Assembly: GCF_054482525.1 (NCBI RefSeq)
Contig: NZ_CM137006.1
Length of the DNA: 64,000 nucleotides
Strand: one strand, 5' to 3'
Shown: positions 11,541 to 31,380 of the stretch, piece after piece
Layout: each line of letters starts with the position of its first letter
Position numbering within the stretch: the stretch's first letter is position 1
Notes under the pieces: model-generated
What the model was told of the DNA's origin: nothing
The model's input: the letters and a program-made list of their open reading frames with translations, nothing else
Databases searched by the model: none
Position numbers and translations under genes: made by a program

Positions 11541-12551
11541 TTAGATATGGGTAACGATTTCTTTAATCAGCGGCGGACCTTTAAAAATAAAACCAGAATA
11601 AATTTGCACCAGTGAGGCCCCCGCAGCAATCTTTTCACGCGCAGCGATAACCGAGTCAATGCCGCCAACACCGATGATCGGTAAGCGACCGTTTAATTCC
11701 TGTGACAAGCGGCGAATAATTTCTGTGCTTTTTAACTGAAGCGGACGACCACTTAAGCCACCGGTTTGATCGCAATTTTTCATTCCCTGAACCAGAGAAC
11801 GATCGAGAGTGGTATTGGTTGCAATAACGCCATCAATATTATGGCGAACTAAACTATCGGCAACCTGGATCAATTCTTCTTCAGAAAGATCCGGCGCGAT
11901 CTTCACTGCGATCGGCACATATTTATGGTGCATCGCTTGCAAATCATTTTGCTTATTTTTAATCGCGGTTAAGAGATCATCCAGCGCTTCGCCATATTGC
12001 AGTGTGCGTAGTCCTGGGGTATTCGGCGATGAAATATTGATGGCGATATATCCCGCATAAGCATAGATTTTTTCCATACAAATCAGATAGTCATCTTTAC
12101 CCTGCTCCACCGGCGTATCTTTATTTTTGCCGATGTTAATACCCAGGACGCCATCATAATGGGCTTTTTTTACGTTCTCTACGAGGTTATCAACGCCAAG
12201 ATTATTAAAGCCCATACGGTTGATCAAACCTTCGGCATCTACCAGACGAAAGAGACGCGGCTTGTCATTACCTGGCTGTGGACGTGGCGTGACGGTACCG
12301 ATCTCGATCGATCCAAATCCCATCGCGCCTAACGCGTCAATGCACTCCCCGTCTTTATCAAGACCGGCTGCCAGACCAAGCGGATTTTTAAACGTCAGGC
12401 CCATGCAGTTAACAGGTTTCGCAGGCACTTTCTGCCGCACCAGTGCTTCAAACGGCGTTCCGGTAATGCGGCGTAATTGCTGAAAAGTAAACTCATGAGC
12501 GCGCTCTGGATCGAGCTGGAAAAGGGCTTTACGAACGAAGGGGTAGTACAT
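11541..12551 (-). CDS. pyrD: Dihydroorotate dehydrogenase (quinone) PyrD (336 aa)
   Basis: ORF-track 11541..12578 trimmed to the conserved start [11 protein letters not shown]; class 2 DHODH sequence. Confidence 0.95.
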
Positions 12552-12637
12552 GAACTCTCCTGGATTCCCGGTGTGCAAACCGGGGGCGTATTATGTGCGA
12601 GTTCGGACCAAAAGGGAATTGACCTGTGGCAAAAAAA

Positions 12638-24045: not shown

Positions 24046-24262
24046 TATGCCGGATGTGGCGCACAAAACCAGCATTTCCAACGGACTTGTGGGCCTGATA
24101 AGACGCGTCAAGCGTCGCATCAGGCAGTTGGACCCGGTTGCCGGATGCGCGTAAACGCCTTATCAGGAAGTTGGGCACGGCTGCCGGATGCGGCGTGAAC
24201 GCCTTATCCAGCCTACAAAACCAGCATTTTCAACGGACTTGTAGGCCTGATAAGACGCGTCA
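24046..24262. repeat. BIME: cluster of REP palindromic units between ssuB and pepN
   Basis: Several REP-like palindromes (GCCGGATGCGGCGTGAACGCCTTATCCAGCCTAC, GGCCTGATAAGACGCGTCAAGCGTCGCATCAGGC) separated by a repeated linker AAAACCAGCATTT(C/T)CAACGGACTTGT; the last unit is interrupted by the IS. Confidence 0.85.
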
Positions 24263-25730: not shown

Positions 25731-28343
25731 TCAAGCCAGTGCTTTAGTTATCTTCTCGTACAGATCGCCAGAGAGATTTTCCAGCCCTTTCAACTGCTCC
25801 AGCGCCGCGCGCATTTTCTCCTGACGTTTGGCATCGTAACGCTTCAGGCGAATCAGCGGCTCAATCAGGCGCGAAGCCACCTGCGGGTTACGGCTGTTGA
25901 GGTCGGTAAGCATTTCCACCAGGAACTGGTAACCGCTGCCATCTTCGGCATGGAACGCTGCCGGGTTGCTGCCCGCAAACGCGCCAATCAACGAACGAAT
26001 GCGGTTCGGGTTGCTCATGGTAAATGAGCGATGCTGCAACAGACCACGCACCGTCTCCAGCACATTTGCCGCCGGGCTGGTGGCTTGCAGGATAAACCAT
26101 TTATCCATCACCAGACCGTCCTGATGCCACTTGTCGTCGTACTCCTGCATCAGCGCGTCACGGCATGGCAGCTGTGCAGCAACCGCCGCAGAAAGCGCGG
26201 CCAGCGCATCGGTCATATTGTTTGCTTCATGGAACTGCTTGCTCACCAGCACGTCAGCCAGATGCGTTTCACCAAAAGCGAGGAAACGCAGGCAGGCATT
26301 TCGCAGAGTGCGTTTTGCAATATCTTCATGCTCAACACGGTACTCGCTCTGGTAATTCGCGTTGTAAATAGCCAGTAGCTCATCCGCCAGTTCAGTCGCC
26401 AGAGTACGAGTGAGTGCTTCGCGTACTTCAGCAATAGCAATCGGGTCGATGATATCGAACAGTTCTGCCATTTCATTGACGGAAGGCAGCGTCAGGATTT
26501 CTGCCGCCAGTGCCGGATCAATCTTCTCATCAAGCAGTACCGCGCGGAAAGCATCAGCCACATGCACCGGCAGAGACAGCGGCTGCCCTTGCTGATGACG
26601 GGCGACGTTGAGCTTGATGTAGGTTGCCAGCAGGCTTTGCGCCGCATCCCAGCGGGAGAAATCATTACGCGCATGGCGCATCAGGAAGGTCAGTTGCTGA
26701 TCGCTCCACTTATATTCCAGTTTCACTGGCGCAGAGAATTCGCACAGCAGCGCAGGCACCGGCTGAAAGTAGACATTATCAAAGACAAAGGTCTGTTCCG
26801 CCTGGGTGACGTTCAGCACCGAATTCACCGGGTGACCGCCTTTCTGCAACGGGATCACTTTGCCTTCGTTGTCATACAGTTCGATGGCAAACGGAATATG
26901 CAGCGGCTGTTTTTCTGCCTGATCCGGCGTAGCAGGCGTGCGCTGGCTGATGGTCAGGGTGTACTGCTCGGTTTCCGGATTATAGTCGTCTTTGACGGTC
27001 ACAACCGGCGTACCGGACTGGCTGTACCAACGGCGGAAATGAGAGAGATCGACATTCGACGCATCTTCCATCGCCTGAACAAAGTCGTCGCAGGTTGCCG
27101 CGCTGCCATCATGGCGCTCGAAATAGAGCTGCATCCCTTTCTGGAAGTTTTCTTCGCCCAGCAGGGTGTGGATCATGCGAATCACTTCCGCGCCCTTCTC
27201 GTAAACGGTCAGGGTGTAGAAGTTGTTCATCTCAATGACCATATCCGGGCGGATCGGGTGCGCCATCGGGCTGGCGTCTTCCGCAAACTGCAATCCGCGC
27301 ATGGTGCGCACGTTGTTGATACGGTTTACCGCGCGGGAACCAAGGTCAGAGCTGAATTCCTGATCGCGGAAGACGGTTAAACCTTCTTTCAGGCTGAGCT
27401 GGAACCAGTCGCGGCAGGTCACACGGTTACCGGTCCAGTTATGGAAATATTCATGGCCGATAACACGCTCAATATCGAGGTAATCTTTATCGGTGGCGGT
27501 GTCGGTACGGGCCAGCACATATTTGGAGTTAAAGATATTCAGACCTTTATTCTCCATTGCGCCCATATTGAAGAAATCCACCGCGACGATCATATAGATG
27601 TCGAGGTCATACTCCAGGCCGAAGCGTTCTTCATCCCATTTCATGGAGTTTTTCAGCGAGGTCATCGCCCACGGCGCACGATCAAGGTTGCCGCGATCGA
27701 CGTACAGCTCCAGCGCAACTTCGCGACCAGAACGCGTGGTGAAGGTGTCGCGCAGCACGTCGAAGTCGCCTGTCACCAGCGCAAACAGGTAGCACGGTTT
27801 CGGGAACGGGTCCTGCCACTGTACCCAGTGACGTCCGTTTTCCAGTTCGCCTTGCGCAACGCGGTTACCGTTGGAAAGCAGGAAGGGATATTTGGTTTTA
27901 TCGGCAATAATTTTGGTGGTAAAACGCGCCAGCACGTCCGGGCGGTCAAGATAATACGTAATATGGCGGAAACCTTCGGCTTCACACTGAGTGCAAAGCG
28001 CATCGCCTGACTGATAAAGCCCTTCCAGCGCGGTATTCGTCGCCGGGCTAATTTCATTAACGATCTTAAGCGTAAAACGCTCCGGCAAATTACTGATGAC
28101 CAGTGCGCCCTCTTCTTCTTTCCAGGCGGTCCACGGCTCATCATTAATATGAACAGAAACCAGTTTAAGATCTTCGCCATCAAGACGAAGCGGAGCATCT
28201 GATGCACCATGACGGACAGCCTGGCTGACCGCGGTAACGACCGTCTTTTGCGCGTCCAGGTCAAAGGTCAAGTCAATATCAGTAATCTGGTAATCCGGCG
28301 CACGATAATCGTGACGGTATTTGGCTTGTGGCTGTTGAGTCAT
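25731..28343 (-). CDS. pepN: Aminopeptidase N
   Basis: ORF track, 870 aa; M1-family motifs GAMEN and HEYFHNWTGNRVTCRDWFQLSLKEG. Confidence 0.95.
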   Translation of the reverse strand: MTQQPQAKYRHDYRAPDYQITDIDLTFDLDAQKTVVTAVSQAVRHGASDAPLRLDGEDLKLVSVHINDEPWTAWKEEEGALVISNLPERFTLKIVNEISPATNTALEGLYQSGDALCTQCEAEGFRHITYYLDRPDVLARFTTKIIADKTKYPFLLSNGNRVAQGELENGRHWVQWQDPFPKPCYLFALVTGDFDVLRDTFTTRSGREVALELYVDRGNLDRAPWAMTSLKNSMKWDEERFGLEYDLDIYMIVAVDFFNMGAMENKGLNIFNSKYVLARTDTATDKDYLDIERVIGHEYFHNWTGNRVTCRDWFQLSLKEGLTVFRDQEFSSDLGSRAVNRINNVRTMRGLQFAEDASPMAHPIRPDMVIEMNNFYTLTVYEKGAEVIRMIHTLLGEENFQKGMQLYFERHDGSAATCDDFVQAMEDASNVDLSHFRRWYSQSGTPVVTVKDDYNPETEQYTLTISQRTPATPDQAEKQPLHIPFAIELYDNEGKVIPLQKGGHPVNSVLNVTQAEQTFVFDNVYFQPVPALLCEFSAPVKLEYKWSDQQLTFLMRHARNDFSRWDAAQSLLATYIKLNVARHQQGQPLSLPVHVADAFRAVLLDEKIDPALAAEILTLPSVNEMAELFDIIDPIAIAEVREALTRTLATELADELLAIYNANYQSEYRVEHEDIAKRTLRNACLRFLAFGETHLADVLVSKQFHEANNMTDALAALSAAVAAQLPCRDALMQEYDDKWHQDGLVMDKWFILQATSPAANVLETVRGLLQHRSFTMSNPNRIRSLIGAFAGSNPAAFHAEDGSGYQFLVEMLTDLNSRNPQVASRLIEPLIRLKRYDAKRQEKMRAALEQLKGLENLSGDLYEKITKALA

Positions 28344-28561
28344 AAATAACCTTTAGCATCTTTTATAGAGTCTGGTGTTCAGTCTATTCCTGTTGCGTAA
28401 ATCGCGCTATGCAGAATCTTCATCTTTTCAGGTACAAACGCCTTTATTGCTACATTTTTATAACATACACCGCGTAATGCCATCGACCAGAAAGGTGGCA
28501 TATGGTGTGATCGGGGTTCAATAAATTGCGAAACAAGGTATACTCCAGCAGTTCCTGAAGA

Positions 28562-28579
28562 TGTTTATTGTACTAAACG
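28562..28579. promoter_or_regulatory. NadR-box-like inverted repeat upstream of pncB (TGTTTA-N6-TAAACG)
   Basis: Inverted repeat about 30 nt upstream of the pncB start; matches the NAD-repressor operator pattern as recalled; the ORF-track ATG at 28561 lies inside it. Confidence 0.5.
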
Positions 28580-28608
28580 CTCCTGTACGAGGACGCTACT
28601 GCGCACCT

Positions 28609-29811
28609 ATGACACAATTCGCTTCTCCTGTTCTGCACTCGTTGCTGGATACAGATGCTTATAAGTTGCATATGCAGCAAGCCGTGTTTCATCACTATTA
28701 CGATGTGCATGTCGCGGCGGAGTTTCGTTGCCGAGGTGACGATCTGCTGGGTATTTATGCCGATGCTATTCGTGAACAGGTTCAGGCGATGCAGCACCTG
28801 CGCCTGCAGGATGATGAATATCAATGGCTCTCAGCCCTGCCTTTCTTTAAGGCCGACTATCTTAACTGGCTACGCGAGTTCCGCTTTAACCCGGAACAAG
28901 TCACCGTGTCCAACGATAATGGCAAGCTGGATATTCGTTTAAGCGGCCCGTGGCGTGAAGTCATCCTCTGGGAAGTTCCTTTGCTGGCGGTTATCAGTGA
29001 AATGGTACATCGCTATCGCTCACCGCAGGCCGACGTTGCGCAAGCCCTCGACACGCTGGAAAGCAAATTAGCCGACTTCTCGGCATTAACCGCCGGTCTT
29101 GATATGTCGCGCTTCCATCTGATGGATTTTGGCACCCGCCGACGTTTTTCTCGTGAAGTACAAGAAACCATCGTGAAACGTCTGCAACAGGAATCCTGGT
29201 TCGTGGGCACCAGCAACTACGATCTGGCGCGTCGGCTTTCCCTCACGCCAATGGGAACACAAGCACACGAATGGTTCCAGGCGCATCAGCAAATCAGTCC
29301 GGATCTTGCCAACAGCCAGCGAGCTGCACTTGCTGCCTGGCTGGAAGAATATCCCGACCAACTTGGCATTGCATTAACCGACTGCATCACTATGGATGCT
29401 TTCCTGCGTGATTTCGGTGTCGAGTTCGCCAGTCGCTATCAGGGCCTGCGTCATGACTCCGGCGACCCGGTTGAATGGGGTGAAAAAGCCATTGCACATT
29501 ATGAGAAGCTGGGAATTGATCCACAGAGTAAAACGCTGGTTTTCTCTGACAATCTGGATTTACGCAAAGCGGTTGAGCTATACCGCCACTTCTCTTCCCG
29601 CGTGCAATTAAGTTTTGGTATTGGGACTCGCCTGACCTGCGATATCCCCCAGGTAAAACCCCTGAATATTGTCATTAAGTTGGTTGAGTGTAACGGTAAA
29701 CCGGTGGCGAAACTTTCTGACAGCCCTGGCAAAACTATCTGCCACGATAAAGCGTTTGTTCGGGCGCTGCGCAAAGCGTTCGACCTTCCGCATATTAAAA
29801 AAGCCAGTTAA
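28609..29811 (+). CDS. pncB: Nicotinate phosphoribosyltransferase PncB (400 aa)
   Basis: ORF-track 28561..29811 trimmed to the conserved start [19 protein letters not shown]. Confidence 0.9.
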
Positions 29812-29845: not shown

Positions 29846-29979
29846 CCTTTAATTCCGAAATCTTTCGCTGCATTTGCGAATTCTGCTTGTCTGATTGCAG
29901 ATGCCAGGTAACATAGGTATCCCCCCATTTACGGGTGGACAAGTGTTTATTTTTTCCGACTATTAACAGAGAGAATATT

Positions 29980-31380
29980 ATGAGCGTTGTGCCTGTAGCC
30001 GACGTACTCCAGGGCCGCGTAGCCGTTGACAGCGAAGTCACCGTACGCGGATGGGTACGTACCCGCCGAGATTCAAAAGCTGGCATCTCCTTCCTCGCCG
30101 TTTATGACGGTTCCTGCTTTGATCCTGTACAGGCTGTCATCAATAATTCTCTGCCCAATTACAATGAAGACGTCCTGCGTCTGACCACCGGTTGCTCGGT
30201 CATTGTGACGGGTAAAGTCGTGGCATCGCCGGGCCAGGGGCAACAATTTGAAATTCAGGCCAGCAAGGTTGAAGTTGCTGGTTGGGTTGAAGATCCAGAC
30301 ACTTACCCGATGGCGGCAAAACGCCACAGCATTGAGTATCTGCGTGAAGTCGCTCACCTGCGTCCGCGCACAAACCTGATTGGTGCCGTCGCGCGCGTTC
30401 GCCATACGCTGGCGCAGGCGCTGCATCGCTTCTTTAACGAGCAGGGATTCTTCTGGGTTTCAACGCCACTGATTACTGCGTCTGATACCGAAGGGGCTGG
30501 CGAAATGTTCCGCGTTTCTACGCTGGATCTGGAAAACCTGCCGCGTAACGATCAGGGCAAAGTGGATTTCGACAAAGACTTCTTTGGTAAAGAGTCTTTC
30601 CTGACCGTATCTGGCCAGTTGAACGGCGAAACCTACGCTTGCGCATTGTCCAAAATTTATACCTTCGGCCCGACTTTCCGTGCTGAAAACTCCAACACCA
30701 GCCGTCACCTGGCGGAATTCTGGATGCTGGAGCCGGAAGTGGCGTTTGCTAACCTGAACGATATCGCGGGTCTGGCTGAAGCCATGCTGAAATATGTCTT
30801 CAAAGCGGTTCTCGAAGAACGCGCTGACGACATGAAATTCTTCGCTGAACGCGTAGATAAAGATGCCGTTTCACGTCTGGAACGCTTCATTGAAGCCGAT
30901 TTTGCGCAGGTGGATTACACCGACGCAGTGACCATTCTCGAAAACTGCGGCAGGAAGTTTGAAAACCCGGTTTACTGGGGCGTCGATCTCTCTTCTGAGC
31001 ATGAGCGTTATCTGGCGGAAGAACACTTTAAAGCACCGGTAGTGGTTAAAAACTATCCGAAAGATATTAAAGCGTTCTATATGCGCCTTAACGAAGACGG
31101 TAAAACCGTTGCGGCTATGGACGTTCTGGCTCCGGGCATCGGTGAGATCATTGGTGGCTCCCAGCGTGAAGAGCGTCTGGACGTGCTGGACGAGCGTATG
31201 CTGGAAATGGGCCTGAACAAAGAAGATTACTGGTGGTATCGCGATCTGCGTCGCTACGGTACTGTTCCGCATTCCGGTTTCGGTCTTGGTTTTGAACGCC
31301 TGATTGCTTACGTAACTGGCGTGCAAAACGTGCGTGATGTGATTCCGTTCCCACGTACTCCGCGTAACGCCAGCTTCTAA
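29980..31380 (+). CDS. asnS: Asparaginyl-tRNA synthetase AsnS (466 aa)
   Basis: ORF-track 29935..31380 trimmed to [13 protein letters not shown]; class II aminoacyl-tRNA synthetase sequence. Confidence 0.95.

Follow-up and report, generated by a model that had tools for sequence, protein, structure and literature searches.

A probable NadR operator in the pncB leader of Escherichia coli overlaps an upstream ATG that is unlikely to start PncB

Where the coding sequence of pncB begins in Escherichia coli, and what the imperfect inverted repeat in front of it does, are two questions that overlap in a few nucleotides of the leader. A mechanically generated list of open reading frames opens the gene at an ATG at 28561 (28561..29811, 416 aa), which places a 16-residue extension ahead of the sequence MTQFASP, while RefSeq sets the start at 28609 (400 aa), both in K-12 and in a strain that is identical to the stretch of DNA analysed here. 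This stretch, referred to as the window, spans 64,000 nucleotides of the E. coli chromosome and includes pepN, pncB and asnS (Table 1), the identity of pncB being backed by the RefSeq annotation and by the TIGR01514 profile. The region around the repeat is identical to that of K-12 MG1655, and a 401-nt stretch surrounding it is found at an identity of at least 99% in 5408 of the 5425 matching complete E. coli genomes and at 95-99% in the remaining 17. Around the repeat, the sequence reads ...cctgaagATGTTTATTGTACTAAACGctcctgtacGAGGAcgctactgcgcacctATGacacaa... Elsewhere in the window, two matches reached the Rfam gathering threshold, namely a PyrD leader (12546-12619, minus strand, 97.9 bits) and naRNA4/CssrE (24092-24169, minus strand, 62.6 bits). 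The reading favoured here, to which we assign a probability of about 0.9 on the basis of sequence comparisons, is that NadR acts on pncB through the 18-bp imperfect palindrome at 28562-28579, which serves as its operator, and that PncB does not start at the ATG at 28561. An operator for NadR at pncB is already established, as is the 400-aa start, and nothing in this reading is new in kind.

Table 1. Features of the pepN-pncB-asnS region, in window coordinates, with the basis for each assignment.
Feature	Position	Strand	Basis
pepN (aminopeptidase N), divergent neighbour	25731..28343	-	ORF list and RefSeq
Weak -35-like hexamer TTCAAT (3/6 matches, 16-nt spacer)	28517..28522	+	Inferred from TSS position
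Extra NadR-type half-site GAAACA in the promoter spacer (-21..-16)	28530..28535	+	Co-occurrence with the box; function inferred
pncB -10 hexamer TATACT (-12..-7)	28539..28544	+	7 nt upstream of the mapped TSS
pncB TSS (G)	28551..28551	+	51-nt sequence listed for this TSS by Kim et al. 2012, mapped to window 28501-28551
Probably spurious in-frame ATG (mRNA +11), start of the mechanical 416-aa ORF	28561..28563	+	ORF list; no Shine-Dalgarno sequence
Probable NadR operator (NAD box) TGTTTA-TTGTAC-TAAACG	28562..28579	.	Consensus match and conservation; NadR binding predicted
Shine-Dalgarno GAGGA of the real start (15-nt spacing)	28589..28593	+	Anti-SD duplex of -5.9 kcal/mol
pncB CDS, nicotinate phosphoribosyltransferase (400 aa plus stop)	28609..29811	+	RefSeq, TIGR01514, NF003704, PDB 3os4
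asnS	29935-31380	+	ORF list and RefSeq

The box, TGTTTATTGTACTAAACG, is composed of TGTTTA (28562-28567), the spacer TTGTAC (28568-28573) and TAAACG (28574-28579), and is separated from the pncB ATG at 28609 by 29 nt. The initial annotation, which had reported a TGTTTA-N6-TAAACG repeat about 30 nt upstream of the conserved PncB start, located the repeat correctly; of the span that it gave, 28562-28609, the part that covers the box stands, but the end coordinate does not, 28609 being the true start codon and outside the repeat. The published consensus of the NadR box is TGTTTA-N6-TAAACA, bound by the helix-turn-helix (HTH) domain of NadR with NAD as a co-repressor (PMC2330246, PMC2330245), and the pncB box matches 11 of its 12 positions, with a single mismatch. 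Repression of pncB by NadR is stated in PMC12421817, and a description of the NadR regulon presents nadA-pnuC as its conserved core and pncB as regulated "in several enterobacterial genomes" (PMC5343134). As for the host, the definition applied here calls for a NadR with an N-terminal HTH DNA-binding domain, which is confined to Enterobacterales; the product of nadR in K-12 (b4390) carries an HTH_3 domain at residues 7-59, at its N-terminus, in addition to enzyme domains. An 18-bp palindrome, a location in the leader of an NAD gene, an HTH-bearing NadR in the host and a phylogenetic footprint are thus all found together at this locus. The NadR-type identity that had been proposed from the sequence alone agrees with the published consensus, the likeness to the nadA and nadB boxes, the position in the promoter and leader, and the footprint.

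The sequence match is by itself weak evidence and is not significant. The pncB box is the sole match to TGTTTA-N6-TAAACA with at most one mismatch on either strand of the 64 kb, where 0.18 such matches are expected by chance. Because strict complementarity extends over just 5 nt in each arm (GTTTA/TAAAC), the pncB box escaped a generic search for inverted repeats with a seed of 6 nt. A palindrome that is a functionless chance match would be compatible with the 17 out of 100 shuffles of the window in which at least one such match was obtained. What takes the box beyond chance is its position within the 58-nt 5' UTR of a gene that is reportedly repressed by NadR, together with the lack of any change in its half-sites across 54 species, in contrast to a variable neighbouring leader. 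This conservation pattern effectively refutes a chance origin, which retains next to no probability.

The pattern was obtained from a census of pncB loci in 80 species-representative genomes of Enterobacteriaceae. Of the 80 species, 54 have the box, at a distance of 28 or 29 nt upstream of the pncB ATG, and in these 54 neither TGTTTA nor TAAACG shows any change, so that the half-sites, with the non-consensus G at the end, are 100% invariant. Conservation in the same species is 97% for the N6 spacer and only 70% for the 20 nt directly upstream of the box, between the -10 hexamer and the box. The proximal box is absent in the other 26 species, whose genera include Klebsiella, Raoultella, Trabulsiella, Atlantibacter, Franconibacter, Siccibacter, Mangrovibacter and Superficieibacter. 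Since the box is missing in these species, control of pncB by NadR would not be universal, and its absence appears to fit reports in which the membership of pncB in the NadR regulon varies. The census thereby offers a compact picture of pncB joining and leaving this regulon across the Enterobacteriaceae.

Certain loci of the census depart from the common arrangement. In four of them the distance from the -10 hexamer to the box is 7 nt instead of 17 nt, which brings the operator one helical turn nearer the promoter; in one of the four, that of Enterobacter sichuanensis, 10 bp are deleted between TATACT and the box. Enterobacter sp. Ag1 has no proximal box, and a perfect NadR box, TGTTTAGTACTCTAAACA, is present 179 nt upstream of its pncB ATG (locus coordinates 1305-1322), upstream of the conserved core promoter. 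The upstream neighbour of pncB in that genome is a co-directional ORF of 406 aa and not pepN.

The position of the box relative to the promoter can be derived from a published transcription start site. The pncB entry in the supplementary TSS table of Kim et al. 2012 (PMC3415461) gives 180 reads and a 58-nt 5' UTR, and its sequence places the start at 28551. With the TSS at this nucleotide, TATACT is therefore the -10 hexamer, the box extends from +12 to +29 (centre at +20.5), and the upstream ATG falls at +11. TATACT is present at all 80 species loci and the TTCAAT hexamer is kept in most of the aligned species; a consensus sigma-70 scan of 28300-28700 called no promoter. Just upstream of the -35 and overlapping it, GTGTGATCGGGGTTCAAT (28506-28522) shows strong conservation across most genera, many box-less ones among them; Klebsiella and Raoultella do not share it. 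A CRP site at 28506-28510 (the TGTGA half) was considered and dropped, as its right half had no match.

The spacer between the -35 and -10 hexamers carries an additional NadR-type half-site, which in Escherichia has the sequence GAAACA; most other genera have TAAACA instead. Of the 54 species with the box, 53 have AAACA in the spacer, whereas AAACA is lacking there in all 26 species that have no box, a co-occurrence that may stem from only a few independent evolutionary events. Taken together, the spacer half-site and the left half of the box form the inverted repeat TAAACAA...TTGTTTA. This same repeat is said to have been pointed out by Vinitsky et al. in 1991 in the pncB promoter of Salmonella.

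These positions suggest how repression might work. When NAD is plentiful, NadR with NAD as its co-repressor would bind the box through its N-terminal HTH domain; a protein seated at +12..+29 would overlap the downstream footprint of RNA polymerase and could block either open-complex formation or promoter escape, the outcome being that less of the niacin-salvage enzyme PncB would be made. The GAAACA half-site would probably aid binding, with a NadR multimer flanking the -10 hexamer and the TSS.

The high conservation of the N6 spacer, above what would be expected of an unconstrained N6, raises the possibility of a bidirectional operator, in which the box would also act on a minor divergent promoter directed towards pepN, with its -10 element inside the spacer of the box. 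In the entries of the Kim et al. 2012 table for this region, a TSS on the minus strand at window position 28559 is assigned to pepN with a 216-nt UTR, and the corresponding -10 would be TACAAT, the complement of 28567-28572. In those entries this TSS has only 5 reads, whereas the pepN TSS at 28450 has 12 and the pncB TSS 180, and the -35 region of the TSS at 28559 (GTCCTC) is poor. Moreover, pepN is not named as NadR-regulated in PMC12421817, PMC2330246, PMC5343134 or PMC2330245, and contacts with NadR could simply account for the conservation of the spacer, all of which makes a second, divergent target of the operator distinctly unlikely.

Given that the repeat is transcribed in full (+12..+29), it might alternatively work as RNA, as a 5'-UTR hairpin that affects stability, translation or attenuation, rather than as a DNA operator. 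A GUUUA/UAAAC hairpin is indeed part of the centroid fold of the leader, but it amounts to only -1.7 kcal/mol, and the leader as a whole folds worse than shuffled controls (z = +1.18). No U-tract follows the repeat and no terminator was called there; the leader has no Rfam match even at E <= 10, and compensatory changes are lacking in half-sites that never vary. As the sequence is also that of the NadR DNA consensus, a role as an RNA hairpin is highly improbable. A UCCU/AGGA mini-hairpin in the leader was rejected as well, its changes across species being uncompensated.

If the box is the probable NadR operator of pncB, the ATG at 28561 is left to be accounted for. The initial annotation had described this start codon as embedded in the operator, which holds in part: two of its bases belong to the 18-bp box and the A lies one base outside it. 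An ATG is found at this position in 5 of the 54 box-bearing species, E. coli, E. albertii, E. whittamii, Intestinirhabdus and one Enterobacter sp. (kpr-6), and is in frame in 4 of the 54, being out of frame in kpr-6. The species that do not carry it have TTG at that codon, commonly with a TAG stop directly before it, and the ATG is, by this comparison, a lineage-specific T-to-A change in front of TGTTTA. A similar arrangement is seen at the perfect NadR box of nadB in E. coli K-12 (locus coordinates 396-414), which is also preceded by an A (ATGTTTA), the resulting ATG being out of frame with nadB.

Several observations could be taken to indicate that 28561 is a genuine, perhaps minor, start from which Escherichia makes a 416-aa isoform of PncB. 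The AUG is on the transcript, it is in frame with no stop before 28609, it is kept in the three Escherichia species named above, the long form is annotated in some GenBank records, and the Shine-Dalgarno (SD) sequence of the accepted start is oddly distant from its AUG. Nevertheless, the comparison with orthologues shows that the extension is not kept as protein. Homology starts at residue 17-18 of the long ORF: residue 1 of the solved PncB structure (PDB 3os4, MTQDASPIL) aligns to residue 17, and the profile alignments begin at residues 18 (NF003704), 24 (TIGR01514) and 29 (Pfam NAPRTase_N), so that no family profile or solved structure covers the extension. In addition to the ATG being missing outside Escherichia, Intestinirhabdus and the single Enterobacter sp., 20 of the 54 species differ by an indel of 1 nt immediately ahead of the real start (CACCTATG versus CACCATG), by which the box and pncB come to lie in different frames, and in Pseudenterobacter the extension contains an in-frame TGA.

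The pattern of substitutions likewise argues against coding. Among 34 sequences that share the frame, the variable sites of the extension are distributed over codon positions 1, 2 and 3 as 6/4/6, as compared with 35/21/82 over the first 300 nt of the coding sequence; this flat distribution, set against one rich in third positions, implies that the extension is conserved as DNA and not as protein. The 16 codons also include CTA, CGA and GGA, which are rare codons in E. coli. For the Salmonella protein, N-terminal sequencing by Vinitsky et al. in 1991 reportedly gave Thr2 of the 400-aa form as the first residue.

With regard to ribosome binding, no anti-SD pairing was found 3-11 nt before 28561, the best pairing anywhere being one of -3.3 kcal/mol at 20 nt, whereas 28609 is preceded by GAGGA (-5.9 kcal/mol), which is conserved in all aligned species, including the box-less ones. 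The contrast between the two starts thus goes in the expected direction, with no site at a functional spacing for the upstream one, but it is not a clean one because the SD of the accepted start is itself unusually far from its AUG (15 nt, or 14 nt in other genera). A search for start-site evidence in material from the Ribo-RET, TetRP and TRAINSPOTTER N-terminomics studies turned up no mention of pncB. The tests of annotation, homology, frame, periodicity and SD all speak against coding, in agreement with the earlier suggestion that the 16 residues are probably not translated. It appears very unlikely that the ATG at 28561 is a real start, even a minor one, and translation of PncB is, as judged from these comparisons, initiated at 28609 to give a 400-aa protein.

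The distant SD is part of a block between the box and the start, AAACGCTCCTGTxxGAGGAxGCTACTGCGCACC (about 28575-28608), which is approximately 93% conserved and also retained where the NadR box itself has disappeared. The SD lies unusually far, 14-15 nt, from the AUG within this block, for which no Rfam match and no stable or covarying structure were found. It is conceivable, if unlikely, that the block is an undescribed element for the post-transcriptional control of pncB, such as a binding site for a protein or an sRNA or a standby site, and that the Escherichia-specific AUG at +11 might add a low level of upstream initiation.

The 416-aa form does occur in GenBank records, for instance in CFT073 (AAN79541.1), which bears out the earlier view of this site as a point of over-annotation. 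The exact 416-aa sequence falls within a 124-member cluster of entries of 416 or 417 aa, of which the named members listed are all Escherichia, E. albertii having a 417-aa form; the 400-aa form belongs to a cluster of 5048 members and is found on at least 1000 contigs. As the extension is highly conserved DNA, it could mislead start predictors that are based on conservation. With regard to Klebsiella, the ortholog table of Kim et al. 2012 gives K. pneumoniae pncB (KPN_00967) a length of 1239 nt, compared with 1203 nt in E. coli; here the N-terminus has probably been over-extended in another way, to an in-frame ATG that lies 12 codons farther upstream. The main worth of the present analysis therefore lies in annotation quality, in that a longest-ORF track and a minority of E. 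coli submissions push pncB into its own operator, and its biological import is small, the operator and the start being established and the RefSeq pncB already correct.

When compared with known cases, the locus resembles a generic over-extension to the longest ORF in having an in-frame upstream ATG with no intervening stop, which adds 16 codons with neither homology nor a ribosome-binding site; the extension is likewise not conserved as coding sequence and is present in some submitted genomes. It differs from such cases in that the ATG is made by the base that lies just before a regulatory half-site. As an operator, the box shares with the known NadR operators of nadA-pnuC, nadB and pncB the 18-bp architecture, a regulon gene downstream and a host that has an HTH-bearing NadR. 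It resembles the nadA box of E. coli K-12, TGTTTAGCATATAAAACA, and the two nadB boxes, TGTTTAGTAAATTAAACA and TGTTTAGCAACTGTAACA; the K-12 boxes upstream of nadA and nadB have 1, 2 and 0 mismatches to the consensus. The nadA entry of the Kim et al. table (5 reads) places a TSS downstream of the nadA box and is of no use for comparing operator positions. Unlike the consensus, the pncB box ends in G and not in A, a G that does not vary in any of the 54 species. Furthermore, in contrast to the known NadR operators considered here, the pncB box lies wholly downstream of the TSS (+12..+29), and its promoter has an extra lone half-site in the spacer between the -35 and -10 hexamers.
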